Below are positions 18,674 through 61,993 of a stretch of DNA of 64,000 bases, piece after piece. Position 1 is the first letter of the stretch. Each line of letters starts with the position of its first letter. Position numbers and translations under genes: made by a program. This DNA is from a virus, in IMG/VR virus record IMGVR_UViG_3300034110_001068, positions 7,014 to 71,013 of that record; one strand, given 5' to 3'. The notes under the pieces are model-generated. The model searched no databases, was not told the DNA's origin, and saw only the letters and a list, made by a program, of their open reading frames with translations.

Positions 18674-18784
18674 ATGAATAAAGCAACTTCCGACCTGTCC
18701 TCCCACACCCCAATGATGCAGCAGTATGGATGGAAACGGCTTGCAGGCCTTGTACTGCAAAGGTATGCATTGGCTCCTGTCTAA
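18674..18784 (+). pseudogene. mutS: orphaned native 5' end of mutS fused to prophage DNA (36-aa chimera)
   Basis: [18 protein letters not shown] matches the Pseudomonas MutS N-terminus, then diverges (GWKRLAG...) to TAA 18782-18784. Confidence 0.9.
18707..18723 (+). repeat. left att core ACCCCAATGATGCAGCA
   Basis: Identical to 59444-59460. Confidence 0.92.
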
Positions 18785-18852
18785 AACTCAATCCCGAGAA
18801 AGCGCGCCTTTGCCTCAACAAAACCGCTTTAATGCTCGGTAGTTTTAGACAG
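18777..18852. repeat. candidate integrase arm-type sites (12-bp inverted repeat)
   Basis: CTGTCTAAAACT 18777-18788 / AGTTTTAGACAG 18841-18852; related AGTATTAGACA 59371-59381 and AATAGACAG 59396-59404 at the other end. Confidence 0.65.
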
Positions 18853-18948
18853 ATGCCAAACCCATCTCCGGCGTTCTGCCGACCGATTATCAAACCAAAA
18901 ATCTACAGCTCGTCGCCTCACCCTCGCTCACCCTACGCGCCTCGATTA

Positions 18949-18964
18949 CTGTATATGCAAACAG
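18949..18964. promoter_or_regulatory. LexA (SOS) box
   Basis: CTGT-ATATGCAA-ACAG, 18 nt upstream of ORF 18983. Confidence 0.8.
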
Positions 18965-18982
18965 TATTCAGTAAGGCATTCC

Positions 18983-19363
18983 GTGGACCACCTCATAGAA
19001 GATACCGACGATTGGCTCGGTAACCCGACCCCGCTCGAAACCTGCCGACACCAGCTCAGGATGTACGAGAACGAATTCGAGGCTCTCACCCTCAAGCTTG
19101 AGCGCGCACTTGAAAATATTCAGGGTCTGGTGCGTGACAACGATGCGCTCACGCTCGAGAGGAATTCTCTCAGGGCTGAGCTAACTGCTGCCAAAACTGA
19201 AGCCGCCGAGGCTGGCCGGCGCGCGAATGACATCACAATCAAAACCAACTGGGAGCTGATGGCGAAGGACAAGCACATCTCTCACCTGTCGACGGAAATT
19301 AAAAAGCTAAAAGGCGAGACCCCCTTCGCCCCGGCCTTTCCGCATCAGCGGGATATTTCCTGA
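18983..19363 (+). CDS. SOS-regulated coiled-coil hypothetical protein
   Basis: 126 aa with heptad pattern; GTG start with SD AAGG; LexA box upstream. Confidence 0.7.
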   Translation: MDHLIEDTDDWLGNPTPLETCRHQLRMYENEFEALTLKLERALENIQGLVRDNDALTLERNSLRAELTAAKTEAAEAGRRANDITIKTNWELMAKDKHISHLSTEIKKLKGETPFAPAFPHQRDIS

Positions 19364-19848
19364 ACGTACGCTTGGCACGCCTGAAGCGCGATCAGTCCCT
19401 GGTCGCCGGTGTCGGTGATGGCGATAATTCGTTGAGCATGCGCCGGGTCAAGTCGGGCTCGTACGGTTGCATGATCCACGCCGCCGGCGCCGGTGGCTTT
19501 GGGCACGTCACAGCCACCGGCTGAATCCGCGTCGATGAGGACTGACAGCCGCAGATCAGCAGTGGCAAGGCGATCACGCAGGCGATCCTGGTAACGTTGG
19601 GCATCACTCAATTTCCTGTAGTGGATTTGCTCGTTGGCCGCCAACTTCTGCTCGAGCGCGAGGCGCTTGTCCTGCTCGGCCTTCTGCGCCTCGGCGCCGG
19701 CCATTGCTAGCTGGTTAAGTGTCTCGCCGTGCACCCTCGCCTGCTCGGCCAGCTGCCAGCCGTAGCGCCAGTCCTGGAACTCCCAGGCGCTTACGAAGCC
19801 GGCGAGCGCCAGCGCCAGCGCGCCGATCAACCGCCATGGGACAGTCAC
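19345..19848 (-). CDS. Rz-like i-spanin
   Basis: N-terminal TM, coiled coil, ACQAYV end; GTG start overlapping endolysin stop. Confidence 0.85.
   Translation of the reverse strand: MTVPWRLIGALALALAGFVSAWEFQDWRYGWQLAEQARVHGETLNQLAMAGAEAQKAEQDKRLALEQKLAANEQIHYRKLSDAQRYQDRLRDRLATADLRLSVLIDADSAGGCDVPKATGAGGVDHATVRARLDPAHAQRIIAITDTGDQGLIALQACQAYVQEISR
19392..19607 (-). CDS. Rz1-like o-spanin lipoprotein embedded in Rz
   Basis: Lipobox-like LICGC, Pro-rich CPKPPAPAAW, alternate frame inside Rz. Confidence 0.85.
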   Translation of the reverse strand: MMPNVTRIACVIALPLLICGCQSSSTRIQPVAVTCPKPPAPAAWIMQPYEPDLTRRMLNELSPSPTPATRD

Positions 19849-20378
19849 GCCAACACCCCGCGCGCCTTCTTCCAAAGCTCCAGTCGATCCGCCAAACCGT
19901 TCAACCCGCCGTTGATGCGCCGAGTGATGGTGTTGAACTCGTCCCGATCGGCCAAATCGTTCAACCCCTTCTGCTTCCAGAACCAGGCCGCCGACATAGC
20001 GGCATGCTGTGGCAGCTCGAGCAATTCAGGATGATTGATCAGGTCAAGGCCCAGCGCCTCGCCACACTTGGCATAGTTCGCCCGTCCGGTGATCTGGATC
20101 AGCCCTCGTCCGCAATACTTGCGACCGTCGCCCGGCACGGTATTGCCCAGGTCTGCGCGCCCCTCGTAACCGCGCTGAGCTGCAGTCGGCCCCCAGATCT
20201 CACGGACGTAGCGCAGCTGGCCAGACTCATGGCCGATTTGCGCAATGAACGCGGCGGCGCGCTTTGGGCCCACGATCTGGTAGTGCTGCATAGCGGTGTT
20301 CAGGGCGGAAACAAAAACGCCCGCTTGATTGCGGGCGTTCGGGAGGATCTGCAGCAACTGCTGCTGGGTGATCGGCAT
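19845..20378 (-). CDS. GH19 endolysin
   Basis: FIAQIGHESG, GRGLIQITGRANY, TRRINGG. Confidence 0.95.
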   Translation of the reverse strand: MPITQQQLLQILPNARNQAGVFVSALNTAMQHYQIVGPKRAAAFIAQIGHESGQLRYVREIWGPTAAQRGYEGRADLGNTVPGDGRKYCGRGLIQITGRANYAKCGEALGLDLINHPELLELPQHAAMSAAWFWKQKGLNDLADRDEFNTITRRINGGLNGLADRLELWKKARGVLA

Positions 20379-20395
20379 AGAATTCTCCTGACAAT

Positions 20396-20418
20396 AAAAA
20401 ACCCGCCGAAGCGGGTTT
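20396..20418 (-). terminator. terminator after acyltransferase moron
   Basis: AACCCGC/GCGGGTT stem plus T-run. Confidence 0.7.
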
Positions 20419-20438
20419 AAGATGTTTAAAGCTGCTAT

Positions 20439-21560
20439 TCAGGCTGGCTCTTTTTCTAACGCCCCAAAAATACGTCGCTTGACCAAAGCTTTAATGGGAA
20501 CAACTATATATCGATCAAACGCCAGCGAATACAACACCGCTGCGACAATATAAAAAGGCCACGAATGCACAGTATCAAGCTGATAATATTGGCTTGTCAC
20601 ATCTGATGGCTTTATAACACCAATGACACAAAGCAAAACATTCAACACAAAAAATCCGAACAGGTGGTGCAGCAATATCGGAAAGGAGTTCTTACCTATG
20701 TAACCAAGAACCATCGTGAATGACTTGTTGCTAGAGGCGATTTGAGCGATCCCGTAGAAAAATGCTATCCCCAGCACACTGCTGAACACTGGCAAATACG
20801 TTGCCTGATATTTTGAAACCTGCATCCAAAAATCAAGATTCCCGGCAAAAACAAGCATCTGCTGCTGAACTATATAAATAGCAGCCAGCACAAACACATT
20901 ACTGAAAAACCGTTGAGCCCTGTACTTTGCAACGACTGAGCCAAGGTAATAGAAAAAAGCTGCGAACATAAAACGATAGCAAATAATCTTGTCTATTGGA
21001 GCATAATTATCCCCATACATTCTCATGCTGTATACGACGGCTAGGAATGCCAAAGCCAGATACACACAGAGAAAACCGCTCGATACCAGACCTTCACCGA
21101 ACCCTCTCAACAAAACAGCTAGTCGGGTATGGACAAGCGAGAAGTATAACTTCACAAAAAATAGGCACGAAATAAACCAATATGCAGAAGTAAACTTGTA
21201 CGCCCCGCCGGTTGTAAATTGATTAACAAACAAAAAATCAAAGCTGAATGGTTGTACGAAAGCGCTGAACCCGAGATGAGAGATCACCCAGCACGCGACG
21301 GCATAGAACAAATAGAACACGATGGAATATAGCAGCAAAGATCTTACGTTCTTAGCTACAGTAGAGATTACACCGTCAACTTTATACTCAGAAAAAAACA
21401 ACCCAGAAACAAAGAAAAATAACGGCATATGAAAAGAGTAAGGCGCAAAAGCAACCATTGTCGCGCCACTGCTTGCATGCCCAGAAACGACCAACAATAT
21501 TCCCAGGCCGCGCAGAACATCGACACTCAAATCCCTGTCTTTCACAAACTCTCTCCACAT
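20439..21560 (-). CDS. acyltransferase-3 family membrane protein (O-antigen acetylase-like moron)
   Basis: DVLRGLGILLVVSGH, FHMPLFFFVSG, YWFI, IGKNSFPILLHH; AT-rich. Confidence 0.9.
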   Translation of the reverse strand: MWREFVKDRDLSVDVLRGLGILLVVSGHASSGATMVAFAPYSFHMPLFFFVSGLFFSEYKVDGVISTVAKNVRSLLLYSIVFYLFYAVACWVISHLGFSAFVQPFSFDFLFVNQFTTGGAYKFTSAYWFISCLFFVKLYFSLVHTRLAVLLRGFGEGLVSSGFLCVYLALAFLAVVYSMRMYGDNYAPIDKIICYRFMFAAFFYYLGSVVAKYRAQRFFSNVFVLAAIYIVQQQMLVFAGNLDFWMQVSKYQATYLPVFSSVLGIAFFYGIAQIASSNKSFTMVLGYIGKNSFPILLHHLFGFFVLNVLLCVIGVIKPSDVTSQYYQLDTVHSWPFYIVAAVLYSLAFDRYIVVPIKALVKRRIFGALEKEPA

Positions 21561-21614
21561 CACAATCGATCAAGGGCACCCCTGTAGACCGAGATGATAT
21601 GGAGAGATTGAGTC

Positions 21615-21818
21615 TTATGCTATAGCTGGCTGCCCGCCATTCGTTGGATCAGGCAGATCGCCAGTGATCGTGCCTTCCGGGAGCGACTCCCACCAAAGCT
21701 CATACCGGGGATCATCAGCAAAGATCTCAGCTTGGAAAGGTACGTATTCAACTGGCTGGAGGGAGCTAAAAATACCAATGATCTTCGTCACTGTAGCGTC
21801 TGAAAACTCGGCAATAAT
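21615..21818 (-). CDS. small tail-fibre-associated protein, apparent ATT start
   Basis: Open frame IIAEFSDATVTKIIGIFSS..DDPRYELWWESLP after SD GAGGTGA; in-frame TGA directly upstream; alternative GTG start at 21791. Confidence 0.55.
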   Translation of the reverse strand: MIAEFSDATVTKIIGIFSSLQPVEYVPFQAEIFADDPRYELWWESLPEGTITGDLPDPTNGGQPAIA

Positions 21819-21826
21819 TTGTCACC

Positions 21827-22801
21827 TCAGAATTCGTAATTTTTTACGCTGATAGTAAAGCTAGGTATCCCACCGGTTGAACTGGCTGTTTGATAGATGG
21901 TTTGTGGGACAGATATAGCAACACGGAAAGGTATCGCGACAGAGCCACCCGGCAATGTTGCGGTATTGAACTGGCCGCCAATAGCCGAGTTGGAGACTGA
22001 AGTTAAAACTTGTGAGACGGAGCTGGCGGCCGAGCTACCGGCCTGGTTGAACCCGGAGACAAATTTGGCGCTGTATGGGAAACCTGTTGAGGCTCTCGCA
22101 AATGGCCCGCCTACAGCAGTTGAGGAGGTGAGAATACCGACCCCCAAATAGTCGACTGTGCGATCAACCTGAAAGAACGGCGCGAATTGCCCCGCCGCCG
22201 CACTGATTGGCGCAACCGAAACGAGCGCAGAGGCCGTGTATCCAGCAGGCATGAATGAGCCAGCATAGGCGGCAGGCAAGAAGGAGCCGGCCTCCATCCT
22301 CCCGATTAACATTGGGTTGGTGGCCGACACGGGGATGGTGGGATTGAAGCACGCATAGATTCCCAAGAATCCGTTCGCAGTCGCCGCTCCGTTGTCCATG
22401 CCTCCAATGCCGATTTTGCTTAGGTCGATGGTTCTACTGAAATTAGGCACCACATAGCTCATCCCGCCCAGCATTGATTTCATGACGACTTCATCGGCCG
22501 TGATGGTCGCGGTAGCTGAGGCGGCAAGAACTGAACAACGCAGGTTGCGTACAGAACCTATCACTGGAGAATTATAAGGCAGTCGCGAGCCGATGAGCTG
22601 ACTGATCGCGGCTGCAAGCTGGTTGTTCACTGCCTCATTGGGTGTGAGTCCTGCCACATTGATCACGTTGAGAATTTCGTCTGTTACCGCATTACCCCAT
22701 TGCGCTGGAATCAATGACCCAGGCGTTCCCGCCAAAGGATCTTCATCTACAAACTTCCCACCCACCAGTCCAACGCTCGGCACGCTAATCGGATAATCCA
22801 C
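21827..22801 (-). CDS. tail fibre / receptor-binding protein
   Basis: MDYP..GKFVDED..IPAQWGNAVTDEILNVI baseplate anchor; follows DUF2313 gene. Confidence 0.85.
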   Translation of the reverse strand: MDYPISVPSVGLVGGKFVDEDPLAGTPGSLIPAQWGNAVTDEILNVINVAGLTPNEAVNNQLAAAISQLIGSRLPYNSPVIGSVRNLRCSVLAASATATITADEVVMKSMLGGMSYVVPNFSRTIDLSKIGIGGMDNGAATANGFLGIYACFNPTIPVSATNPMLIGRMEAGSFLPAAYAGSFMPAGYTASALVSVAPISAAAGQFAPFFQVDRTVDYLGVGILTSSTAVGGPFARASTGFPYSAKFVSGFNQAGSSAASSVSQVLTSVSNSAIGGQFNTATLPGGSVAIPFRVAISVPQTIYQTASSTGGIPSFTISVKNYEF

Positions 22802-22812
22802 GTTTCTACCTC

Positions 22813-23412
22813 TCAGTCATAATTGATGTGCACGACGGTGTGCGCTGGCGCCGGACGCCTGATCGTGCATTCGAGCGGGTTGCCTGGGTTGGCACCGAAG
22901 CGCTCTCCCCAATAGCTGACGCCGAAGCGCCGGCCCTGGCGCTGCCTGCCGCCGGTGTTGAGCGTCCACATGAACTGCGCTTTCCATGTGCCGAAGTGGG
23001 CGACGCCAAAACGAGAACGCCCCATTCGGGGCGCTCGATGTTCGGTGATGGTCGCATCCGGGTAACCCTGGCTTATGGCGATTTCTATGAAATAGGCTCT
23101 GCTCTGCCCGCCGACATCTACGAGGCGGCGACGAACGGCCAAGCGGCGATCCTCAAAAGTTGGGTTCGGCCCGAGACAGGGATCCGGCAGGTTCATGACA
23201 GCCTCCCAGTCCGGTACCAACTCGCTAACGCCAGCAGGATCCATCTCGTTCAGCAGGTCGACCGCCCGGGCATCGAGGCGCGCAAATTCAATTGCGACAC
23301 CCTTTAGCACCAGGTCTATTTCGGGCACCAGCTCAGGATCCCAGGCTGGGCCAGCAGGCAAGAGACCACGAAGCTGACGACGGTACTGCTCGGCGGTTCG
23401 GGCTACAGCCAT
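22813..23412 (-). CDS. baseplate wedge protein (Mu gp48/YmfQ, DUF2313)
   Basis: LLPAGPAW, LPDPC, PAHT motifs. Confidence 0.9.
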   Translation of the reverse strand: MAVARTAEQYRRQLRGLLPAGPAWDPELVPEIDLVLKGVAIEFARLDARAVDLLNEMDPAGVSELVPDWEAVMNLPDPCLGPNPTFEDRRLAVRRRLVDVGGQSRAYFIEIAISQGYPDATITEHRAPRMGRSRFGVAHFGTWKAQFMWTLNTGGRQRQGRRFGVSYWGERFGANPGNPLECTIRRPAPAHTVVHINYD

Positions 23413-24440
23413 GTGATGCCTCCGAAGGTCAGCAGCTCGTTGGCAACCGCGGTAACGTCGGCAACTGGAACAGTCAGCGAATGATCCGTTTCGCCGGCTG
23501 CGCCACTGATAGCCTCACGAATGTGACTGATCAACAACTTGTCGCCCAGACCGGCCTCGCGTTCGTGCAGGTCCTTTAGACTTGCCGTGATGGCTGCGCG
23601 CACCGCTGTTGTGTCTGGCACAGGATGGATGCTGTAAAGCACCGGTTTGAGCGTTGGTGCCAAAACATAGAGCTCAGCTGTTACTGGCCGCAACGGCTCG
23701 ATGTAGTCCTTGATCTCCTGCAGTTGTGTCGGGTTCGGCAACGGCATGGGATCGTTGTCGCGCATCACGAACAGCCCGACCGTGCCCGGTCCAAGGTAAT
23801 TGCCACGGCACCATGCCCGCGTGACGCCGGGAAACTCCAAAGCCCAGGTCTCGTAATCGTCCGCCGAACCTCCGTGAGGGATGACTCGGTATGACCGGAT
23901 CACCCGCGCGCGCAGGGATTCGATGCTTTCCTTTTCAATGCCACCAGATAACCCGGGAGCAGTGACTGTAAAAGAGTTGGTCACGCCAGCCACTGGCTGG
24001 ACCAGTGTAAGCTGAAGGCTGGCATCCGCATTGCCAAGCGCGCCAGCTTCCACCGCTTCAATCGTGGTCGTGTTCAGTCCCGCCACCGTAGTGACACCGG
24101 CGGTAACTCGGTACATGCGGCCGTCACCAGCCTGCAGAATCACATCGACATCCAGTACGGCACCAGCGGCAGCACTGAAGCTCACGCTACCCTCTGCAGG
24201 CTGAGCAGAATTGCGCGGACGATTCAGACGCAGCGCGGCAATGCGCTCGAGCGTTTCCTCGTCGGCTTTGTCTGGCAGGATTTGGTCGGCGATCCAGTCG
24301 AGATAGCCGTACAACCCGTAAGCGGTGCCGCTCAAGGTCCGCGCCAGCACCTGGGCATCGGAACGCCGTAGCGCTTCGCTGGCCAGATCGCTTTGCGTGC
24401 GACTGATGAGCACCGGCAGTGAAGGTGTTTCAAACGGCAT
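23403..24440 (-). CDS. baseplate J-like protein (Mu gp47)
   Basis: PHGGSADDYETWALE..GVTRAW. Confidence 0.92.
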   Translation of the reverse strand: MPFETPSLPVLISRTQSDLASEALRRSDAQVLARTLSGTAYGLYGYLDWIADQILPDKADEETLERIAALRLNRPRNSAQPAEGSVSFSAAAGAVLDVDVILQAGDGRMYRVTAGVTTVAGLNTTTIEAVEAGALGNADASLQLTLVQPVAGVTNSFTVTAPGLSGGIEKESIESLRARVIRSYRVIPHGGSADDYETWALEFPGVTRAWCRGNYLGPGTVGLFVMRDNDPMPLPNPTQLQEIKDYIEPLRPVTAELYVLAPTLKPVLYSIHPVPDTTAVRAAITASLKDLHEREAGLGDKLLISHIREAISGAAGETDHSLTVPVADVTAVANELLTFGGITWL

Positions 24441-24828
24441 AGATCACCTGCCAGGAAGAGATGGGTTTTATTTCGATGCGGTCGCCGCCGGGCACCGTGA
24501 GGATGACCGTCAGGCTCAATCGACTGATGTCGACCTTCTCGCTGGTGATCTCGATCGCGATCGCGTGTCCCTCGTCCAGCAGCCACCGTAGGGCTTCGTT
24601 CGCGTAGAACTCCGCATCGCGCTGCGTGGCGTCGGTCAGCTTGACCCGCCGCAACAACCACAAGCGCGAGCCGATGCGGTCATCTGCAATATCTGGGTAA
24701 CTGTCCCCCCACCACCCGAACAGTTCGTCATCGTCCACTGGGTCATCGGTCAGCGCTCGGCGCCAGGTAAACAGACTGATCAGCACGGCGCGGGTCAGGG
24801 CTGATTGGCGATCATCAGAAAAAATCAT
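24430..24828 (-). CDS. baseplate protein (Mu gp46)
   Basis: VLISLFTWRRA..GWWGD..GSRLWLL. Confidence 0.92.
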   Translation of the reverse strand: MIFSDDRQSALTRAVLISLFTWRRALTDDPVDDDELFGWWGDSYPDIADDRIGSRLWLLRRVKLTDATQRDAEFYANEALRWLLDEGHAIAIEITSEKVDISRLSLTVILTVPGGDRIEIKPISSWQVIYAV

Positions 24829-25334
24829 CAGCCCCCCGCTGCGGGTGGCCCGCTGTTGCCGTTGCCCGCCTGGACATTGGTGTGGACGTGCTCGATTTGA
24901 CTAACGCCGCCGGCGACCTGATCACCCGTAGAAACGATCTGTCCGGTCTGGTTGATGACCGGCGTGTCAAAGTTCACCGCGGTCGTTGCCTTGATGTTCA
25001 GCGTGGCCGTTTCGATATCGATAATCCGGCCACGCTTGAAGTGGATCTTGTCGCCTTCGTCCGTGTAGATAGCCACTTCACCCGGTTTCAGTTCCTTGAT
25101 GCGGTACCGGCGGTCTGACGCCACCACGACAACAGCGTGGGAACGGTCGCCGTTGAGGAACATTGTCAGCACCTCGGCGCCCGCCAGCGGATTGCTGGTC
25201 AGCCCGTAAGGTTCGAAGTGCTCGACGTTGTCCTTCAGCTCGCCGGCGGTCATCCGCACCTGCAGCATCTGCATCATCTTACCGGCCGCCGCCAGCACAA
25301 CCGTGCCGCGCGCCATCATGCTTTTCAGGCTCAT
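24828..25334 (-). CDS. baseplate spike (Mu gp45 / gpV)
   Basis: EPYGLTS, GEVAIY, C-terminal HVH. Confidence 0.92.
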   Translation of the reverse strand: MSLKSMMARGTVVLAAAGKMMQMLQVRMTAGELKDNVEHFEPYGLTSNPLAGAEVLTMFLNGDRSHAVVVVASDRRYRIKELKPGEVAIYTDEGDKIHFKRGRIIDIETATLNIKATTAVNFDTPVINQTGQIVSTGDQVAGGVSQIEHVHTNVQAGNGNSGPPAAGG

Positions 25335-26443
25335 TTTTTCGGCTCGTAGTCTGCAGGGATGAGGTATTCGAAGTTGTCGGCCTTGCCGCCCTTCTTCAAC
25401 TTGCGGTCTTTGTGCGGGTCGTGCGGCTCAGGCTCGAAGCCGTCCGGAGGACCTACCTCCAACTTGGTAATCTGCCCGCTGTCGGTGAGCGCATAAGTCA
25501 CCCGGGCGATGAGCATGATGCGATCGAAGCCCACAATTGGGTCGATGACCCGCACCAGCGAGTTGTGTTTCCAGAGCGCGCCGTTTGATTGTCGCCAGCC
25601 CTGTACGGTGTAATTGGTGGTGAGGGCTTTACCCATGCGCGTGCCGCGTTCCCAGTTCGCCCGGGCCTGCGCCAGGTCGTTGGTCATCTGCCCCGATTCC
25701 TGAATGATCATGACCCGCTTGCGGCCAACGCGCGGATCCGCCACGACCGCCGATACCTCTGCCGCCTGCTCGCCGAACTCGTCGTCGGTACCGCTCTTCT
25801 GGCCGAGCACTTGGTATTCGGAAAAGACCGCCGAGAAGTCCAGCGCGGCATCACCGGTCAGGATGTTGTTGCCTACTTCCAGCGCATCGAATGCCCGGAC
25901 CTCGCTGCCGGGCTTGGCAAGCACGGCCATGCCCTTGGCATCGTCTGTGGAGAAAACGCGGAACAGCGTCAGCAGGCGATCGATGGATTCGAACACCGTT
26001 TCGCCGGGCTCGATCGTGTGGTCTGAAAGCTTTGCCCCTTCCGGGATCTCGCTGCGCACACGAACACCGTAAGGCGACGACAGCGCCCTGACGATCGAGA
26101 GAACGCTTTGGTTGTTCCACTGCCCCGGCTTATTGATTGCCCCGCAGTCCACCAGATCGGCGGTGAGGGAGCGGCCGCTGACGCTGGTGGTGATTTGCTG
26201 ATGGTCGTAACTGATCGGCGTGGCGAACACCCAGCCAGTCAGCACAAGGTCGTCGCCGATCCTGACCTGGCACTTGGCTCCCTGCTTGATCGGCAAAGGC
26301 AACGGCTGCCCGGGCCATTTCCATGTGATGTTCAGCGTGAATGACCGCGCCTGATCCTCAAGTCCGGCGGTGATCTCTACGGATTTCCAGCCGAAGTAAT
26401 CCAGACCGTCAACCGTGAGGCTGACAGCATTGACGTCTTCCAT
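25331..26443 (-). CDS. baseplate hub (Mu gp44/gpP)
   Basis: GWKSVEI, GRSLTADLVDC, EPGETVFE. Confidence 0.92.
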   Translation of the reverse strand: MEDVNAVSLTVDGLDYFGWKSVEITAGLEDQARSFTLNITWKWPGQPLPLPIKQGAKCQVRIGDDLVLTGWVFATPISYDHQQITTSVSGRSLTADLVDCGAINKPGQWNNQSVLSIVRALSSPYGVRVRSEIPEGAKLSDHTIEPGETVFESIDRLLTLFRVFSTDDAKGMAVLAKPGSEVRAFDALEVGNNILTGDAALDFSAVFSEYQVLGQKSGTDDEFGEQAAEVSAVVADPRVGRKRVMIIQESGQMTNDLAQARANWERGTRMGKALTTNYTVQGWRQSNGALWKHNSLVRVIDPIVGFDRIMLIARVTYALTDSGQITKLEVGPPDGFEPEPHDPHKDRKLKKGGKADNFEYLIPADYEPKK

Positions 26444-26446
26444 GGG

Positions 26447-27703
26447 TTACCTCTGGGCGATTTTGATCGGGCGAGCCGGGACGAACCCGGGGTGACGCAG
26501 GCGATTGCGCTGTACCACTTCGGATTCCCGCGTGGCATCACCGAAACGACGGTACGCCAGCACCAACGCCGACAGTGTTTCCGGCGGTGTGATTTCCACC
26601 AGGCGCACGCCCGACTCCGCGACGGCGGTCAGGTGTTTGACGATGGTCTGTCGCAGCGTGTTGAGCACCATGTAGTGCTCGGGATCGGCTTTCAACGACG
26701 CTTGAAAAATCGCCTCGTTGAGGTTATCGCGCAGCTCAAGCACGTCGTCAGCCACTGGCACCTCCGGGCGCACGATCGGCTGCACTGCCTGCTGCTCGAC
26801 CGAAGCCACCGTGGTCGTCGAAACCGGCTGCGAGGCGACAGGCATTTCACTGATGATCAGGGCGACCTGCACCAGCAAAGCGTCCTGCACCAGGTTGGCA
26901 GTGGCTTGTGATGCAGCCGCCGCATCGACACCGCCTGAATCGCTGACGGTATTGATGCTGGCCACGGCCTCGGTCTGCTGCGTAGCGGTGGCCACCGAGT
27001 TCCTGTAGCTCGAACCAGAGTCGTCGCCTAGGTAATCATCCACCGAAAATTCGCTGAAGTAGCTGGAGAACAGCGACGACAGTGAATCTGGCGCGTTCAT
27101 CAATGATTGCACAAAGCCGGTCAGGTTGGTGAAGGCGCCGATAATGGTGGAGAACTGCTGCTGAATGACCGTGTACACGCCCGACAGGCTGTTGCGCAGA
27201 CGGGCCAATCCCAGACGGGCCTGATCCACTTTGGCCATCGCCGACTTGTACCGGGCCAGCGCGGAGTCCAGCAGGCTATCGGAAGCCTTGACGACCTGCT
27301 GCTGGGTGTTGACCTTCGCTGTCGGAAACTTCAGCGGTATGTCCGGGTAGAACGTCACCGCGAACGCCGCCATGCCGCCCTGCTTGAAGTCGTGCGTCAG
27401 TTCGGCTTCACCGGCCTTGACCTGCATGCGGCCCAGCCAAGGGTGCACCAGCTCGCCGGCGCCCGGCGTCTGCACGGCTTCCATGAATTTATCGCGGCGC
27501 TCGAAGCAGTCATCACCGATGATCCAGCAAACCAGCCGGTGAATCTGCGCCTGTTTGCCCATTTGCTCGGCATAGGGCTCGTCGCGCTGCGGAAACTCGT
27601 GCAGCTGCACTTTCATGCCGACCGGCACCGAAGCCTGTGGGATCAGAAAACTGATCCCCCGGAACGACGCCGGCAGCATTTGATCACGCCATGTCTGATC
27701 CAT
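26447..27703 (-). CDS. DNA circularization protein (Mu gp43/N)
   Basis: ASFRG, GELVHPWLG, RHPGFVP. Confidence 0.92.
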   Translation of the reverse strand: MDQTWRDQMLPASFRGISFLIPQASVPVGMKVQLHEFPQRDEPYAEQMGKQAQIHRLVCWIIGDDCFERRDKFMEAVQTPGAGELVHPWLGRMQVKAGEAELTHDFKQGGMAAFAVTFYPDIPLKFPTAKVNTQQQVVKASDSLLDSALARYKSAMAKVDQARLGLARLRNSLSGVYTVIQQQFSTIIGAFTNLTGFVQSLMNAPDSLSSLFSSYFSEFSVDDYLGDDSGSSYRNSVATATQQTEAVASINTVSDSGGVDAAAASQATANLVQDALLVQVALIISEMPVASQPVSTTTVASVEQQAVQPIVRPEVPVADDVLELRDNLNEAIFQASLKADPEHYMVLNTLRQTIVKHLTAVAESGVRLVEITPPETLSALVLAYRRFGDATRESEVVQRNRLRHPGFVPARPIKIAQR

Positions 27704-29776: not shown

Positions 29777-29947
29777 CACTGCACCTGCTGGAGATTATTG
29801 ATCCGTTGCGCGTGCTCCATGGATTCGCGGAGCACGTCGAGCGGGCGAGCCAACATCAGTTCCGGATCCGTTTTCCAGAACCACGCCAGGTCATAAGCAA
29901 CGGCGATCAGGTCGTGGATGGAGTCGACGCCGCACTCATGAAAAAAC
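29776..29947 (-). CDS. -1 frameshift extension of prophage tail chaperone
   Basis: T TTT TTC at 29940-29946; -1 frame FFHECGVDSIHDLIAVAYDLAWFWKTDPELMLARPLDVLRESMEHAQRINNLQQVQ*. Confidence 0.8.
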
Positions 29948-30200
29948 TGGCCACCGCCCAGCTCAGCGAGTTCAAATCAGCCAGATCCAGCTGGTTGACC
30001 GACGACGGCGGAATGCCGGCGCAGACGGCGATGTATTTCGCGGCCACGTCCATGTCCAGGCTGACTTCTTCGTTTTTGTCGATCTTGTACGGCAGCGCCT
30101 TGATGGCCCGCACTTCCTGCACCGTCGGACGGCGCATGGTCAGCTCGGTCAGCGGCTCCCCGTGAGCCTCGATTGCAACCTGTAATTTTACTGCGCTCAT
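29907..30200 (-). CDS. tail assembly chaperone (Mu gp41-like)
   Basis: Nearly identical to 2673-2969. Confidence 0.9.
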   Translation of the reverse strand: MSAVKLQVAIEAHGEPLTELTMRRPTVQEVRAIKALPYKIDKNEEVSLDMDVAAKYIAVCAGIPPSSVNQLDLADLNSLSWAVASFFMSAASTPSTT

Positions 30201-30544
30201 TGCCAGCTCCCTTTCACGCCGTCGAATTGCAGTTCAGTGGTACCGTCTTCGCCTTTATAAGAAGGCTCGTCGACGAGGTAACCGCCGGAAAGCACGTAGA
30301 CCTTTCCGTTTGCGAATTCACAGGTCACCGTCATATCCCGGCCATTCACGAGTTTTTTCAAGGGGAACCCCTGCGGAACGAGAGACGTCACCTTCAAATA
30401 AGGTGGCAGCTCTTCCTCCTTGTAGAACCCCGGCCAAACGGTCTCGCGCTTGACCTCCATCAATGGCGCCTCCGCGCCCCCGGTGATGGTCAGCTGTTCA
30501 CCGTCAACTTTGACGTAAACGGTGCCGGCTACTTTTTCGCCCAT
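30197..30544 (-). CDS. tail tube protein
   Basis: Homolog of 2966-3313. Confidence 0.9.
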   Translation of the reverse strand: MGEKVAGTVYVKVDGEQLTITGGAEAPLMEVKRETVWPGFYKEEELPPYLKVTSLVPQGFPLKKLVNGRDMTVTCEFANGKVYVLSGGYLVDEPSYKGEDGTTELQFDGVKGSWQ

Positions 30545-30603
30545 GGTCTTTGTCTCCAGAATGAAAAAGCCCGCACAGGGCGGGCTGGGTGTTCAGTTGA
30601 GCG

Positions 30604-48964: not shown

Positions 48965-49033
48965 AAATTTAGCTTAGGGCTAACATTGGAGCAAGGAATA
49001 TTTAGCTGTGAGCACATTTAGCATTGAGCTAAA
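48965..49033. promoter_or_regulatory. OR operators and PR promoter
   Basis: TTTAGC-N5-GCTAAA-like 17-mers at 48968, 49001, 49017; minus-strand TTGCTC-17-TAAATT. Confidence 0.75.
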
Positions 49034-49052
49034 CGCTGTCATCCTTGGCCGC

Positions 49053-49904
49053 ATGGATATTTATGCGATTCGCAAACACCAATTGATCACGCTGATTGGC
49101 GACCAAAGAAAAGGCGCCTGCGCAGAGCGCTGGGGGATGGCGCCTGCGCACTTAAGTCAGATCCTGTCGGATAAAACCGCTAAGAACCTTGGGGATGACG
49201 TTGCTCGGCGCATCGAGTCGATCGAGAAACTTCCGCGTGGCTGGTTTGACTCAATACCTAATGATGGTGGCGTGATCGCCAAGGGCACGGAATCCGAAGG
49301 CGAAGCAGCGGAGATGGCTGCGAAGGCAGCTTCCGCCGCGGACCAGGTTAAGCGGATGCTCGCCAAGGTGAAGGGGCTATCGATTGAGGCCAGGGACCGT
49401 ATCGTCGCAGCTGCAGAAGAGCCGGACGATGGACCTGAGCACGTCATTTCGAGCAACCTGTCCCGGCTTCGCCCTACAAGCGAAGAAATTTTGATCCCTC
49501 AATACGATGTCCGTGCTGCTATGGGACATGGTCAGGTTCCCCCGGAATACAACGAGGCCGTTCGCAATCTCGTTGTTAGGGAGGAGATCCTTCGAGAAAA
49601 GGGAGTGACGTATACCGCCGCAAACGCTTTGGCGATGATTACGGGGTGGGGGCAGTCGATGGAAGGAACCATCAACGACAAAGACCTTGTCATCGTCGAT
49701 CGGGGCGTCAACGAGTTTGTTGGTGAGGGCATATATTTGATGACTTGGCACCAAGAGCTCTATATAAAGCGAGTCATGCGGTTAGATGAAGAGCATTACA
49801 GATTGATCTCTGACAATCAGCACTACGAAAACCAGACCGCAAGGATCGACGACGTCAACATTCATGCGAAGGTGCTGTTGATCTGGAACGCGCGAAAAGC
49901 GTGA
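49053..49904 (+). CDS. CI repressor (HTH + S24 peptidase)
   Basis: AAMGHG cleavage region, GQSME and YIKR catalytic motifs. Confidence 0.92.
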   Translation: MDIYAIRKHQLITLIGDQRKGACAERWGMAPAHLSQILSDKTAKNLGDDVARRIESIEKLPRGWFDSIPNDGGVIAKGTESEGEAAEMAAKAASAADQVKRMLAKVKGLSIEARDRIVAAAEEPDDGPEHVISSNLSRLRPTSEEILIPQYDVRAAMGHGQVPPEYNEAVRNLVVREEILREKGVTYTAANALAMITGWGQSMEGTINDKDLVIVDRGVNEFVGEGIYLMTWHQELYIKRVMRLDEEHYRLISDNQHYENQTARIDDVNIHAKVLLIWNARKA

Positions 49905-49915
49905 ACCAGCACAAG

Positions 49916-49942
49916 AAGCCCGCTACCCAGCGGGCTTTTTTT
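49916..49942 (+). terminator. terminator after cI
   Basis: AGCCCGCT/AGCGGGCT + T-run. Confidence 0.8.
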
Positions 49943-49947
49943 CGCCT

Positions 49948-50282: not shown

Positions 50283-50298
50283 CTGTATATTCGTACAG
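50283..50298. promoter_or_regulatory. LexA (SOS) box
   Basis: CTGT-ATATTCGT-ACAG. Confidence 0.8.
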
Positions 50299-52381: not shown

Positions 52382-52409
52382 TTCCACCCCACTCACAAGG
52401 AACTGAAGA

Positions 52410-56284: not shown

Positions 56285-56333
56285 TCGCCCTCGCCTGGTT
56301 CGCCTACGTGTACTGCTACAAGGGGCCTCGGTG

Positions 56334-56816
56334 ATGAGTGCAGCAGCGAAAGTTCTCGACCCGTGCAGCGCCAGTCGAATGATGTGGTTCGACAAACAAG
56401 ACCAGCGCGCGCTGTTCGGCGACATCCGTGACGAGCAGCACCTGCTTTGCGATGGCCGAGTATTGAGAGTTGAGCCGGATGTGCTGATGGATTTCCGGAA
56501 ATTGCCCTTCGAGGCCTCAACCTTCCGCCTGGTGGTATTCGATCCGCCGCACCTGACCCGCGCCGGGGTCGACAGCTGGATGCGGGCCAAGTACGGAATG
56601 CTGACCGCCGACTGGCGCGAGGACATTCGACAGGGTTTCGCCGAGTGTTTCCGGGTGCTGGAACCCGAAGGCATTTTGATCTTCAAGTGGAACGAGACCC
56701 AGGTGACGGTCAGTGAGCTGCTTGCGCTTACCGATGAAAAACCGCTGTTTGGCCACAAGTCAGGCAAGCGCGAAAAAACGCACTGGATCACGTTCATGAA
56801 GCGGCCGGCACCATGA
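56334..56816 (+). CDS. SAM-dependent methyltransferase (probable amino-DNA MTase)
   Basis: VLDPC..SRMMWF, FDPPH, FKWNE. Confidence 0.85.
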   Translation: MSAAAKVLDPCSASRMMWFDKQDQRALFGDIRDEQHLLCDGRVLRVEPDVLMDFRKLPFEASTFRLVVFDPPHLTRAGVDSWMRAKYGMLTADWREDIRQGFAECFRVLEPEGILIFKWNETQVTVSELLALTDEKPLFGHKSGKREKTHWITFMKRPAP

Positions 56817-57130
56817 ACCGCATGGTCAGCGTCCGCACCGAGGAACTGACCGGCCCGGCGCTGGACTGGGCAATAAACGCGGTCGAGGGTGATCAGCAGC
56901 CCGCCGCCGGCCAGCTGGATCTCTTCACCCTGCCAGACGCCGAGCAGCTGATGACGAAGTACGGCGTCTGGGTCGACGCTGGCCACCGGCACCCATGGCT
57001 GGCCGACGCGACCAACGATCCGTTCAACCGCCAGCCCGGCGAAACCCGAACCATCGCAGTGTTCCGCGCCGTGGTCTTCGCCAAGCGCGGCGCCGCGGTG
57101 AAAGTCCCCGCCGAACTGATCCAACAATAA
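56813..57130 (+). CDS. NinX/DUF2591-like protein
   Basis: ELTGPALDWA..VKVPAEL. Confidence 0.7.
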   Translation: MNRMVSVRTEELTGPALDWAINAVEGDQQPAAGQLDLFTLPDAEQLMTKYGVWVDAGHRHPWLADATNDPFNRQPGETRTIAVFRAVVFAKRGAAVKVPAELIQQ

Positions 57131-57183
57131 CCCCTCCCCTAACTCAACAGCCTGCCGGTGTACGGCGGGCGAGGTATTCGCGC

Positions 57184-58143
57184 ATGTTCAAAATAATCAA
57201 AGCGTGGTGGGCCCGCAATGTTTTCCGGGCGAACCCATGGCACGACAAGTTCGTGCTGCTGAACTTTATTGATCTGTACTACAAAGGCCAGCGCGACAGT
57301 GTCCTGGGCGTCACGTTGAACTCCGGCGATCAGGGCGACTACCCCGGCAACAAGCTGGTACTCCAGATCTGGAAATACTCGGCCTGGATCAAGATCCCCA
57401 AAATCATTAAGCCGTGGGCTGAGCAGCACACCTTCACCAGCCTGAGCCCTGAAGCGGAAGCCAAGCGAATTGCAGAGTACGGGCACCTTCATTACTACGA
57501 ATACCACTCCCGCCAGTTCGGCTTCCACCTAACCACTCACGGGATCCATACCAACTTCGGCCCGAGCACTTGGGATTCCAAGACCACGAAGTCTCGCTAT
57601 CACTCGTTCCCATGGCGCGAGTTTGATCTCGTGCGCCATGTCATCTGCGACGCTTCGGGCATCGAACACACCGAAAAGGGAAAGGGTGTCAGCCTCGACT
57701 ACAAGGAAAGGTCAGCGATCAAGGACGCCATGCCGCGCTACGTCTTCCTGCTTCAGGACTACGACGGCGAGGAAATCCGTGCCTATTGCTACATGGAGAA
57801 GCGCGTATACCGCGTAGGCACCGGCTGGGTGAAGAAGTATTTCGGTGCGCTGCGACCCACTCGAACATTCGTTCAGCTTGAAATCTCGTTCGATGGCGAG
57901 ACGGGCCCCGAGAAAGGGTCGTGGAAAGGCGGAACGATCGGCACAGGTAGTCGCGCAGAGAAAGGCGATAAGCACGACGCCCAGTTCCTGATCGAGAAAT
58001 ATTGCGCCGGAACGCATCGCGCCAAAGGCTCCCAATACCAGATGACCCTGGTGCGCCGTGAGCCCGATGCACCCTACACCAACGAGACGTACCGGAAGGC
58101 TTCGGCCGAGCGGCGCGGCGAAACTTACGCCCCTCTCGCATAA
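57184..58143 (+). CDS. hypothetical protein (319 aa)
   Basis: Start MFKIIK with SD GAGGT; GSWKGGTIG motif; no family recognised. Confidence 0.75.
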   Translation: MFKIIKAWWARNVFRANPWHDKFVLLNFIDLYYKGQRDSVLGVTLNSGDQGDYPGNKLVLQIWKYSAWIKIPKIIKPWAEQHTFTSLSPEAEAKRIAEYGHLHYYEYHSRQFGFHLTTHGIHTNFGPSTWDSKTTKSRYHSFPWREFDLVRHVICDASGIEHTEKGKGVSLDYKERSAIKDAMPRYVFLLQDYDGEEIRAYCYMEKRVYRVGTGWVKKYFGALRPTRTFVQLEISFDGETGPEKGSWKGGTIGTGSRAEKGDKHDAQFLIEKYCAGTHRAKGSQYQMTLVRREPDAPYTNETYRKASAERRGETYAPLA

Positions 58144-58187
58144 CCCATCACCACCTTCTGCCGCCACGCGCGGCATGGAGCATCATC

Positions 58188-58382
58188 ATGTTTCTCACCG
58201 CTGAAGAAGTGGCCGAGCTCACCGGCTACACGAAGCCTGGCGCCCAAATAAAATGGCTGCAGGCGGAAAAATACGGGTTCGCCATCGACGGTTACGGCAA
58301 GCCGAAAGTGCTGCGCCAGGTTGTCATTGGCCGGCTCGGTGGTATTCAATCGAAGAAAGGTCCGGAACTCCGGCTCGCATAA
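58188..58382 (+). CDS. DUF4224 excisionase-like protein
   Basis: FLTAEEVAELTG..QIKWL..GKPKVLR immediately before integrase. Confidence 0.8.
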   Translation: MFLTAEEVAELTGYTKPGAQIKWLQAEKYGFAIDGYGKPKVLRQVVIGRLGGIQSKKGPELRLA

Positions 58383-58394
58383 GGAAGGCAACGA

Positions 58395-59372
58395 ATGCGC
58401 CCTCGCAAGAAAGACCGGCACCTGCCGGCGTGCATGTACCAGAAGCACGGCGCTTACTACCTGGTGCGCAAAGGGAAGTGGCTGCGCCTTGGAACAGATT
58501 TCCAGGCGTCGCTCGTTGAATATGCGAAGGCGATCAACAAGGGCAATCAGGGCGGGATGCCTAAGCTGATTGATGACGCGCTGGCGTCGATGGCGCCGAA
58601 GCTTTCCCCAAACACCGTCATCCAGTACGAGGCTGCGGCTGCTCGACTGAAAGATGCTTTCGCCGACTTCGAGCCGCGCGACGTGCTGCCCCGCCATGTG
58701 GCTGCGCTGAAAATGCACATGGCCAGCACGCCGAACATGTCGAACCGGGTGATTTCGTTTTTGAGGATGGTCTTCATGTACGCCTTGGAGAGCCAGCTGG
58801 TGGACTCCAATCCCTGCACAGGAATCCGGCGACATGCGGAGAAGCGGCGCGATCGGTACATTACCGATGCTGAGTTTGAAAAGATCTGCGAGAAGGCGAG
58901 CCCGAACATGCGGGTCATTTATGAGATGTGCTACCTGACCGGGCAGCGGATCAGCGACGTGCTGTCCATACACCTGTCAGATATCAGCGAGGAAGGTATT
59001 GCGTTCAAGCAGCAGAAGACCGGCGCGCGCCTGATCGTCCGAATGAGCCCAGACCTCGAAGCGTTGGTCGCAAGGATCAAAGCCTTGCCGCGCACAATCC
59101 GGGGCCTGACATTGTTCTGCTCGCCACGGGGCGGGAAACCTGTTCATTACAGCTCGGTGAAGGATGCGTTCAAGCGCAACTGTGACGCAGCCGGGGTCGT
59201 CGGCGCAACGCTGCACGACCTGCGCGCGAAGTCGCTGACCGACACCGACAAGCAGGGCAACAACGCCCAGAAACTCGGCGGGCACACCGACGCGAAAATG
59301 ACGGCGCGCTATCTGCGCCTGCGCGAAACCGACATCGCAGAGCCGCCGACAATGCCGAAAAAATCCCTGTAG
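58395..59372 (+). CDS. int: prophage tyrosine integrase
   Basis: TGQRISD, QQKTG, HDLRAK, GGH, RY; adjacent to att. Confidence 0.95.
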
Positions 59373-59389
59373 TATTAGACAATTGCCAA

Positions 59390-61993
59390 GTGTCAAATAG
59401 ACAGATAGAGCCAAAGCCTTTGAATACCGACGTTTCCAGCCATACCCCAATGATGCAGCAATACTGGCGCCTGAAGAATCAGCACCCGGATCAGCTGATG
59501 TTCTACCGCATGGGCGATTTCTACGAGATCTTCTACGAAGATGCGAAGAAAGCCGCCAAATTGCTGGATATCACCCTGACCGCGCGCGGGCAGTCGGCGG
59601 GTCAGGCGATTCCGATGTGTGGGATTCCTTACCACGCCGCGGAAGGTTATCTGGCGAAACTGGTCAAGCTCGGCGAGTCGGTGGTGATCTGTGAACAGGT
59701 CGGTGACCCGGCCACCAGCAAAGGCCCGGTCGAACGCCAGGTCGTGCGTATCATCACCCCGGGAACGGTCAGTGATGAAGCGCTGCTGGACGAGCGTCGC
59801 GATAATTTGATCGCAGCCGTATTGGGCGACGAGCGTCTGTTTGGTCTGGCGGTGCTGGACATCACCAGCGGCAATTTCACCGTGCTCGAAATCAAAGGCT
59901 GGGAAAACCTCCTGGCCGAGCTGGAGCGCGTGAATCCGGTTGAGCTGCTGATCCCGGATGACTGGCCGAAAGACCTGCCGGCGGAAAAACGCCGTGGCGT
60001 GCGTCGTCGTGCGCCGTGGGACTTCGAGCGTGACTCTGCGTTGAAAAGTCTCTGCCAGCAGTTTTCCACCCAAGACCTGAAAGGCTTCGGCTGCGAAAAC
60101 CTGACCCTGGCCATTGGCGCTGCCGGTTGCCTGTTGGCCTACGCCAAGGAAACCCAGCGCACCGCCCTGCCTCACTTGCGCAGCCTGCGTCACGAACGCC
60201 TCGATGACACCGTGGTGCTGGACGGTGCCAGCCGGCGCAATCTGGAACTCGACACCAACCTGGCCGGCGGCCGCGACAACACCCTGCAATCGGTCGTTGA
60301 TCGCTGCCAGACCGCCATGGGCAGCCGTTTGCTCACTCGTTGGCTGAACCGGCCACTGCGCGATCTCTCCGTACTGCTGGCCCGCCAAACCTCGATCCGT
60401 TGCCTGCTCGACGGTTACCGCTTCGAAAAGCTGCAACCGCAGCTCAAGGAAATCGGTGACATCGAGCGGATCCTGGCGCGGATCGGTCTGCGCAACGCGC
60501 GGCCGCGTGACCTTGCGCGTCTGCGCGATGCACTCGGCGCACTGCCTGAACTGCAAGTGGCGATGACCGATCTGGAAGCGCCGCACTTGCAGCATCTGGC
60601 GGCTACCACCAGCACTTACCCGGAACTGGCGGCGCTGCTGGCAAAAGCCATTATCGATAACCCGCCTGCGGTGATCCGTGACGGCGGCGTGCTGAAAACC
60701 GGTTACGACAGCGAGCTTGATGAACTGCAATCACTGAGCGAAAACGCCGGACAGTTCCTCATCGATCTGGAAGCCCGCGAAAAGGCCCGCACCGGCCTGG
60801 CCAATCTGAAAGTCGGCTACAACCGCATCCACGGCTACTTCATCGAATTGCCGAGCAAGCAGGCTGAGTCGGCGCCGGCGGACTACATCCGCCGGCAGAC
60901 ACTGAAGGGCGCCGAGCGATTCATCACGCCGGAGTTGAAAGAGTTCGAAGATAAAGCGCTGTCGGCCAAGAGCCGCGCGCTGGCTCGGGAAAAAATGCTT
61001 TACGAGGCGCTGCTCGAGGACTTGATCAGCCAATTGCCGCCGTTGCAGGACACCGCCGGGGCGCTGGCTGAGCTCGATGTGCTGAGCAACCTCGCCGAGC
61101 GTGCGCTGAATCTTGACCTCAACTGCCCGCGTTTCGTCAGCGAGCCGTGCATGCGCATCACCCAGGGTCGTCACCCGGTGGTCGAGCAAGTGCTGACCAC
61201 ACCGTTCGTAGCCAACGATCTTAGCCTGGACGACAACACGCGCATGCTGGTCATCACCGGCCCGAACATGGGCGGTAAGTCCACCTACATGCGGCAAACA
61301 GCTCTGATTGTGCTCCTGGCGCATATCGGCAGCTTTGTACCGGCCGCCAGTTGCGAGCTGTCGCTGGTGGATCGGATTTTCACCCGCATCGGTTCCAGCG
61401 ATGACCTCGCTGGCGGTCGTTCGACTTTCATGGTCGAGATGAGCGAAACCGCCAATATCCTGCATAACGCTACCGAGCGCAGTCTGGTGCTGATGGACGA
61501 AGTCGGACGTGGCACCAGCACTTTCGACGGTCTGTCGCTGGCGTGGGCGGCGGCTGAGCGTCTGGCCCATCTGCGCGCCTACACCCTGTTCGCCACCCAT
61601 TATTTTGAACTGACCGTGCTGCCCGAAGCCGAACCTCTTGTCGCTAACGTGCACCTCAACGCTACCGAGCACAACGAACGCATCGTGTTCCTGCACCACG
61701 TTCTGCCCGGGCCTGCCAGTCAGAGCTATGGCCTGGCGGTGGCGCAACTGGCGGGCGTGCCGAGCGAAGTGATCCTGCGCGCGCGCGAGCATCTGAGCCG
61801 CCTGGAAGACACTGCCCTGCCCCACGAAGCCCCGAAACCGGCGGCCAAGGGGAAACCCTCGACACCCCAGCAAAGCGATATGTTTGCCTCGCTGCCGCAT
61901 CCTGTACTGGACGAATTGGCGAAAGTGGATCTGGACGACATGACGCCACGGCGTGCGCTCGAAATGCTCTACGCACTGAAGAACCGGATATAA
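59390..61993 (+). CDS. mutS: DNA mismatch repair protein MutS with phage-supplied N-terminus (start GTG 59390, TTG 59420 or ATG 59450)
   Basis: [32 protein letters not shown]. Confidence 0.98.
59444..59460 (+). repeat. right att core ACCCCAATGATGCAGCA
   Basis: Identical to 18707-18723. Confidence 0.92.

Follow-up and report, generated by a model that had tools for sequence, protein, structure and literature searches.

Integration of mobile elements into the mismatch repair gene mutS has been described by Chu et al. (2017, mBio, PMC5296598) for hundreds of Beta- and Gammaproteobacteria, including Pseudomonas putida F1. According to the accessible part of that paper, elements of 4 to >150 kb, some of them prophages, reside in the HTPMMQQ motif of mutS and supply the gene with a new start and regulatory region. 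Scarless excision leading to an intact mutS was demonstrated there by polymerase chain reaction in E. coli 536, B. multivorans CF2 and P. putida F1, and it was proposed that excision flips mutS between two regulatory regions. Also, a hot spot for prophages and tailocins 'between mutS and cinA' was reported for fluorescent pseudomonads, with a prophage-01-like element adjoining mutS in strain Q8r1-96 (Mavrodi et al. 2009, PMC2647930, accessible part). Apart from Chu et al. 2017, no Pseudomonas phage integration inside mutS was found described in the literature searched. In this study, we analyzed a DNA stretch of 64,000 nucleotides (positions 7,014 to 71,013 of IMG/VR virus record IMGVR_UViG_3300034110_001068), referred to as the window, in which a prophage lies within mutS. 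The virus-collection record comprises 71 kb and has a completeness estimate of 100%.

A first-pass annotation had presented this locus as a candidate mutator switch controlled by excision, with a replacement N-terminus built by the phage. The precedents it cited from Streptococcus pyogenes and Vibrio exist in the literature. The novelty it implied is overstated, since N-terminus replacement and a switch between two regulatory regions are both already contained in the accessible part of Chu et al. (PMC5296598). The arrangement, described in 2017, is thus not new, and Table S2 of that paper may list close relatives. What the present case adds is an example annotated in full, a sequenced and inducible phage (phiAH14a) sharing the phage attachment site (attP), an occupancy figure for the genus, and the finding that some arms lack an ATG, which marks the lysogens most worth testing. 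We consider it likely that the integration preserves function by design and keeps a translatable mutS at the right attachment site (attR).

A complete prophage within the mutS reading frame

A repeat search of the window returned one direct repeat of 37 nt (imperfect, 84% identical, spacing 40,737 bp), the two copies of which form the left attachment site (attL) and attR (Table 1). The exact core shared by both, ACCCCAATGATGCAGCA (delimited by eye), covers the T-P-M-M-Q-Q codons, so that the insertion falls in the HTPMMQQ motif of mutS. Crossover is probably confined to about ATGATGCAGCA, because differences flank the core in other attL/attR pairs (by eye). Between the two sites, terminase, portal, capsid, sheath, tape measure, baseplate, spanin, cII, O-like, P and S24 repressor matches were obtained, and this 40.7-kb element is a complete temperate Pseudomonas phage. 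The prophage inside mutS and the stranding of the native start at 18674, 40.7 kb from the rest of the gene, were therefore read correctly in the first-pass annotation.

On the attL side, translation from ATG 18674 passes after the native codons into phage DNA, reads GWKRLAGLVLQRYALAPV and then stops. The same stub architecture was found in all of five other lysogen genomes. Native-type starts of the form M[NS]K..SDLSSHTP are present at attL in these five and also in uninterrupted genes, and the 3′ part of the native upstream region resembles, by eye, the DNA upstream of the five attL starts. The empty site was found as well: a contig from run X8 carries an uninterrupted native-type start, and its junction with the mutS body lies exactly at 59427, the first position of the repeat. 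A mutS rejoined by excision would be in frame, because each of the two His codons (18704 and 59441) keeps the phase of its start.

For a two-copy test, a degenerate DNA word for HTPMMQQ(Y) was counted per genome with the reversed pattern as control. In each of the five lysogen genomes, the word occurred exactly twice and the control never, one copy joining the native-type start to phage DNA and the other joining a phage arm to the mutS body. Where both copies were located on one contig (n = 3), they were 16,441, 42,126 and 55,060 bp apart, the last value being equal to the length of phiAH14a. Insertion into mutS is beyond chance, since the word was present exactly twice in five lysogens while the reversed control was absent from them and from the 401 genomes surveyed below.

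The phage integrase is encoded directly ahead of mutS. In an alignment of 15 integrase sequences, R185, K208, H274, R277, H297 and Y306 were invariant (R-K-H-R-H-Y pattern), which we take to be the catalytic residues of a tyrosine recombinase. The N-terminus resembles, by eye, the arm-binding region of lambda Int. On either side, the core is flanked by conserved TAGACA-type repeats, the distance between TGTCTA and the core being identical in the five other attL sequences, and a nearly invariant block GTAGTATTAGAC..TGTCAAATAGAC marks the 59373..59404 region in 23 arms. As judged from sequence, such repeats around the core would fit a lambda-type attP. The arm-type Int sites are putative, as judged from sequence, and the DUF4224 protein is a putative excisionase by its position.

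Conservation of the replacement start and occurrence of the arrangement

From the GTG at 59390, the mutS open reading frame (ORF) yields a full MutS of 867 aa (TIGR01070, 1291 bits, residues 18-864), which is 98% identical to that of another lysogen. The phage side reads GAC GTT TCC AGC CAT ACC where the native start has GAC CTG TCC TCC CAC ACC, i.e. D-x-S-S-H-T-P is kept with different codons, as the first-pass annotation had stated. Its 17-nt gap between int and mutS was confirmed, too: the int stop (59370-59372) lies 17 nt before GTG 59390 and 47 nt before TTG 59420, with the integrase <300 bp from mutS.

Distinct attR and attP arms (n = 23) were compared. L060 was dropped as identical in sequence to L032 and L027 as having its core outside the locus, and L009 and L010 were filtered out since their MutS reads YLK, an ATG being present in both by eye. 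An in-frame ATG was found in 21 of the 23 arms, in 18 of them 5-6 codons before the His and in three 17 codons before it. The codons ahead of the His encode D/S/G-L-S-S/A/D with mostly synonymous or third-position variation, the change of a serine codon from TCC to AGC relative to the host being one example. A frameshift in the phage-supplied codons of L012 was considered and rejected, as an in-frame ATG is located 17 codons before the His. The two arms lacking an ATG are those of the window and of L007 (P. putida 700447), both of which have TTG at codon -7 and GTG or TTG at codon -17. GTG 59390 is a plausible real start of the window gene, because the -17 position is ATG in L012, L065 and L068.

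The same arm is carried by a free phage. Beside int, attP of phiAH14a reads ATG ACC GAC CTC TCC AGC CAC ACC CCA ATG ATG CAG CAG TAT, with the conserved arm preceding the ATG and phage DNA with the Rz genes following the TAT. This phage was induced by mitomycin C and packaged (Dziewit & Radlinska 2016, PMC4936722, accessible part), and the accessible text of that paper does not mention mutS, attP, attB, 'integration site' or 'mismatch'. Compared at the sequence level, the replacement N-terminus looks maintained by selection, because nearly all arms keep an ATG, variation is mostly synonymous and the arm recurs in a free phage. Selection to keep MutS translatable, as suggested in the first-pass annotation, is thereby supported.

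Relatives were collected in two scans. With the window integrase as query, 12 loci from Pseudomonas and Stutzerimonas genomes were obtained (66-94% identity). In 11 of them mutS follows directly downstream on the same strand, and a contig end truncates the twelfth. An alignment-based scan gave 21 loci including these 12. Here, mutS was found downstream in 18, two loci are cut by contig ends, and in the remaining one, from Methylotenera (37% identity), mutS is absent within 3 kb. In the 14 loci which cover the end of mutS, the alignment of the gene stops no more than 2 residues short of the C-terminus, and in the remaining four mutS runs to the end of the locus. A DNA search with int and attR against complete E. 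coli genomes gave no match.

For the genus, 401 Pseudomonas species genomes were surveyed with the degenerate word (three are flagged unpublished, with a single copy each). The word was present in 395 and absent from six, 20 genomes had at least two copies, and the reversed control was never found. Four of the 20 are lysogens already identified. Among the other 16, seven carry an integrase 72-78% identical to that of the window, with the mutS junction demonstrated in six and int 2.2 kb from the core in the seventh, two are cases of assembly redundancy, and the remaining seven combine an intact native mutS with one extra copy of the word. An occupied mutS site was confirmed in 11 of the 401 genomes (7/397 without the four lysogens known beforehand), which gives a first occupancy figure for the genus.

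Two side observations were made. In the seven genomes with an extra copy, L036, L038, L041, L043, L044, L046 and L048 (G363, G208, G019, G358, G258, G210 and G040), native mutS is intact and one lone extra copy of a 23-34-nt stretch coding for HTPMMQQY(W) is located elsewhere. In the first three it lies among ordinary genes, with no integrase domain in the flanking ORFs scanned. Its neighbours include a GNAT gene beside a TP-methylase gene and the 3′ end of an ABC ATPase gene. Two groups of such copies are conserved between species, and in G210 and G363 the copy follows the CAA or CAG choice of its own genome. Such copies could represent secondary-integration scars or an antisense element. Also, a 16.4-kb element occupies the same mutS site in Pseudomonas sp. 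ANT_H12B (G001; L019/L024), its integrase being 94% identical to that of the window. This element may represent a satellite or a remnant; in a megablast search against phage records it had no match beyond 107 nt, and no link to the satellite phiAH14b was found.

Transcription of mutS in the lysogen and competing explanations

We favour, as the probable explanation, an integration that preserves the function of the target by design. The bacterial attachment site (attB) of a temperate Pseudomonas phage would be formed by the conserved codons for HTPMMQQY close to the mutS 5′ end, and the attP arm beside int would bring an in-frame start and about 6 to 17 substitute codons merging into the core. 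Integration would strand the native promoter and the first 18 codons at attL and leave a complete, translatable mutS at attR, and upon precise excision the native start would again be joined to mutS in frame. Thereby, a site conserved across hosts could be exploited without loss of mismatch repair. Transcription of mutS in the lysogen would have to originate from the phage side, the likeliest source being signals in or just upstream of the arm of about 75 nt, with read-through from xis-int added at induction. Beyond the observed anatomy, att sites, replacement-start conservation and generality of the arrangement, we infer a near-normal MutS level in the lysogen and the place of the promoter.

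Relatives with additional genes between int and mutS bear on this point. Seven related prophages have cargo of 0.6-2.2 kb there, which in six is encoded in the opposite orientation to int and mutS. L002, L006 and L013 carry a gene of the zeta-toxin family (PF06414) together with a partner ORF of 46 aa, L030 and L032 an ORF of 289-300 aa, and L027 two ORFs. The arm from ..CTGTAGTATTAGAC onward is retained in all five opposite-strand-cargo relatives in which it lies inside the locus. Because of the opposite-strand cargo in six relatives, mutS probably does not generally depend on read-through from int in this family. The signals for mutS, as far as can be judged from sequence, are probably located in or just upstream of the arm.

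Several observations weigh against the favoured explanation. A consensus scan of 56500-59700 gave 0 promoter-like sites, and no recognisable Shine-Dalgarno sequence was seen by eye at GTG 59390, TTG 59420 or ATG 59450. With GTG, TTG and an internal ATG as the only starts on offer, the window arm lacks the in-frame ATG of its relatives, and a lower MutS output is possible in the window lysogen because both ATG and Shine-Dalgarno sequence are missing. The only positionally shared -10-like hexamer, TAGTAT at 59370-59375 across the int stop (our own hexamer scan of the 23 arms), is accompanied by a -35 hexamer with at least 3/6 matches in just 13 arms. It was not called a promoter, because it is too weak and overlaps a probable Int site. 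Finally, no RNA contig from runs X1, X2, X8 and X19 bridges int and mutS, a result which is uninformative on expression in the lysogen. RNA-labelled runs contained at most 0.24 of the words, and run X19, the kind of which is unknown, covered int to mutS as short contigs.

These scans have to be read with their sensitivity. The promoter scan is insensitive, because it also missed the region upstream of the native start, no + strand promoter being called before 18674. The native start itself likewise has no clear Shine-Dalgarno sequence by eye. All four terminator-like sites in 56500-59700 are on the - strand and none on the + strand. The first-pass annotation, which had seen no terminator, convincing promoter or strong Shine-Dalgarno sequence before mutS, is thus upheld on the + strand, with the promoter part limited by the insensitive scan.

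A regulatory switch is a possible but unlikely alternative. Here, MutS would be expressed from the phage side, its level and the mutation rate would differ among lysogenic, induced and cured cells, and excision would return mutS to its own promoter. The native upstream region has indeed been moved 40.7 kb away, and induction should read into mutS because there is no + strand terminator-like site from the early-left genes through int to the gene. The missing ATG of the window arm also speaks for a switch, as does the finding that the E. coli mutS leader is a target of Hfq control (PMC5580658, accessible part), so that leader replacement can matter, and the same proposal was made by Chu et al. 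2017 (PMC5296598, accessible part). However, a start kept in 21 of 23 arms argues that the phages were selected to keep MutS working, not to modulate it. The opposite-strand cargo in six relatives means that coupling to int or PL is not a family feature, which weakens the dependence of mutS on the CI-repressed PL operon or a promoter within int put forward in the first-pass annotation. Also, excision of the Vibrio element in about 1 in 10,000 genomes (PMC5296598, accessible part) is too rare to act population-wide unless induced. If phage signals do set the MutS level, lysogeny, induction and curing would each have their own mutation rate in soil- and plant-associated pseudomonads, which would couple evolvability to the carriage of phages. 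This idea dates from 2017, and no measurement outside the Vibrio scar case was found in the literature searched.

A reading confined to the sub-lineage of the window and L007 is more doubtful still. Having lost the ATG and lacking a recognisable promoter, these lysogens would under-produce MutS while integrated and over-produce it, or return it to native control, on induction or excision; in a wider form that shares this low standing, the mutS-cinA tailocin hot spot would derive from domesticated phages of the window att type. If the sub-lineage reading is true, a genuine phage-set mutation-rate switch would exist in soil pseudomonads.

That mutS is effectively off in the window lysogen, making it a constitutive mutator until excision, we regard as very improbable. 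Such silencing would agree with the 0 promoter-like sites in 56500-59700 and with the absence of an in-frame ATG before the His. Against it, the promoter scan misses the native promoter as well, mutS retains an intact ORF sharing 98% identity with its counterpart in another lysogen, L007 as an independent genome has the same TTG/TTG arrangement, and the GTG position of the window is an ATG in three other arms. An assembly artefact or chimeric contig mimicking insertion, to which the origin of the window from a single virus-collection record might point, has a negligible probability given the same attL and attR junction types in five independent genomes (three with both on one contig), the attP form in the sequenced free phage phiAH14a and the empty attB form in a public contig.

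Further features and comparison with known systems

Coordinates are listed in Table 1. On the - strand, the genes run from the centre of the prophage towards attL, starting with a cro-like ORF, which had no family match and owes its name to its position, followed by cII, Rha/ANT, O-like, lambda-P-like and VRR-NUC genes, a second tyrosine recombinase, HNH, terminase, portal and capsid genes, sheath, tape measure and baseplate genes, and the Rz-like spanin. On the + strand, the CI-like repressor gene, with a hairpin and T-run at 49907-49946 on its 3′ side, is followed by small early genes, an Acb3-family gene, the DUF4224 gene and the tyrosine integrase gene reading into mutS.

Table 1. Coordinates of features in the window (a dot stands where the feature has no strand)
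Feature	Position	Strand	Basis or remark
Tailocin cluster: tail sheath	3381-4877		
Tailocin cluster: tail terminator	5056-5688		
Tailocin cluster: B-lectin (LlpA-like)	5846-6691		
Tailocin cluster: helix-turn-helix (HTH) + S24 PrtR-like repressor	7796-8737		
Native mutS upstream region (promoter/5′-untranslated region)	18440..18673	+	now split from the gene
Orphaned native mutS start	18674..18784	+	translation; 18 native codons + 18 phage codons = 36-aa ORF
attL, imperfect 37-nt repeat	18690..18726	.	exact 17-nt core at 18706-18722
Prophage body, 40.7 kb, lambdoid early region and contractile tail	18723..59442	.	PHROG and Pfam matches
Candidate arm-type Int sites, attL side	18778..18852	.	TGTCTA 18778-18783, TAGACA 18845-18850; binding presumed
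Rz-like spanin, final late-operon gene, toward attL	19345..19875	-	phrog_2466, E 1.3e-52
CI-like repressor (S24 peptidase)	49008..49904	+	PF00717, E 3.8e-20
DUF4224 protein, excisionase position	58188..58382	+	PF13986, E 9.8e-11; putative excisionase by position
Lambda-type tyrosine integrase	58395..59372	+	PF00589, E 2.9e-15
Two direct TAGACA-type repeats, likely arm-type Int sites	59373..59404	+	repeats at 59376-59381 and 59398-59403; putative function
mutS with phage-supplied 5′ end	59390..61993	+	candidate starts GTG 59390, TTG 59420, ATG 59450
attR, imperfect 37-nt repeat	59427..59463	.	exact core at 59443-59459

Some further prophage features were recorded. The second tyrosine recombinase (43252-44532, - strand, 426 aa, PF00589, phrog_1) is encoded between the replication and the HNH/terminase genes, and the Acb3-family (anti-CBASS) gene (56995-58143, + strand, PF25187, E 4e-40) just upstream of the xis-like gene and int. 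LexA-box-like sites of the form CTGTATAT-N4-ACAG are present at 18949-18964 and 50283-50298; their count in the window is not significant (2 versus 0.72 expected; 17/100 shuffles reach 2). The first one lies 19 nt upstream of an ORF at 18983..19363 (+ strand, 126 aa, no family match), which faces the spanin gene over a two-way hairpin. Transcripts from the stranded native upstream region could enter this ORF, because no + strand terminator-like site is located between the stub and the ORF. The prophage tail genes at 19380-32640 match 'Pseudomonas phage DVM-2008' (P. fluorescens Q8r1-96) with about 76% over 14% of the query. We take this record to be the mutS-side prophage-01-like element of Q8r1-96. 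The match hints that tailocins of the mutS locus and phages of the window att type share ancestry.

The hot spot of Mavrodi et al. (PMC2647930) occupies the same chromosomal neighbourhood, and the prophage tail genes resemble its Q8r1-96 element; unlike the situation in the window, no insertion within the mutS reading frame is described in the accessible part of that paper. Upstream of the native mutS start, the window contains a resident tailocin-like cluster at 3381-8737, which constitutes the classical tailocin region of fluorescent pseudomonads on the mutS side. Between it and the native start, a + strand block at 11260-18437 encodes a nucleotidyltransferase, a glycosyltransferase 2, a PRK-domain protein, an HAD hydrolase and a class II aldolase and may be a separate island.

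Prophages of the phage 21/e14 type at icd replace the 3′ end of their target gene with phage-borne sequence, so that it stays functional under altered control, whereas in the window the 5′ end of mutS is replaced. SpyCIM1 in the mutS-mutL operon of S. pyogenes (PMC13492144, PMC4129442, accessible parts) is likewise an excisable phage-like element at a mismatch repair gene with a proposed role in tuning the mutation rate. Its integration interrupts expression and leads to a mutator, whereas in the window a replacement 5′ end leaves mutS with its whole coding sequence. In active lysogeny of the SpyCIM1 and phi10403S type, as far as the accessible sources describe it, integration abolishes the function of the host gene or operon and excision is regulated and reversible, without lysis; here, a full-length mutS ORF with a replacement start is kept. 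HK022 at torS (PMC13492144, accessible part) is similar to the window in that the promoter is replaced and the host gene stays functional under altered control; it differs in the gene concerned and in that its effect on expression was measured. Phage phiAH14a (KU708004; PMC4936722) has an integrase about 76% identical to that of the window and the same int-attP-Rz arrangement, but is a 55-kb phage whose DNA match to the window is limited to int/xis.

A second type of element at this site is represented by E. coli 536 (L076, NC_008253.1 2848976-2852507), where mutS opens with the element-type start MSTPENFDAHTP. The gene is preceded by a divergent DUF4102 (P4-type) fragment of 249 aa, followed by a hypothetical protein of 1283 aa and insertion sequence elements. 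In a BLASTP comparison, the DUF4102 protein had no similarity to the window integrase (E 2.5). The locus resembles a decayed element whose integrase is of another type, and more than one integrase lineage may use the site, because this neighbouring gene is unlike the window int.

The closest match is provided by the elements of Chu et al. (PMC5296598), to which, in its sequence and as far as the accessible part of that paper goes, the window conforms structurally: both have the same motif, an orphaned host start, an integrase beside mutS and a start and upstream region supplied by the element. Their mutS is in frame in the integrated as well as the excised state; in the window the integrated frame is open and, by arithmetic, the rejoined gene would be in frame. 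In that paper, elements were also screened for an integrase similar to that of V. splendidus 12B01 (E <= 1e-6). The V. splendidus 12B01 element, which leaves a 2-bp scar in mutS on excision, differs in this respect, as nothing in the window suggests such a scar. Compared with the elements described in the accessible part of that paper, the window represents a fluorescens/koreensis-like host, as judged from mutS identity, and a specific myovirus with a lambda-type Int.

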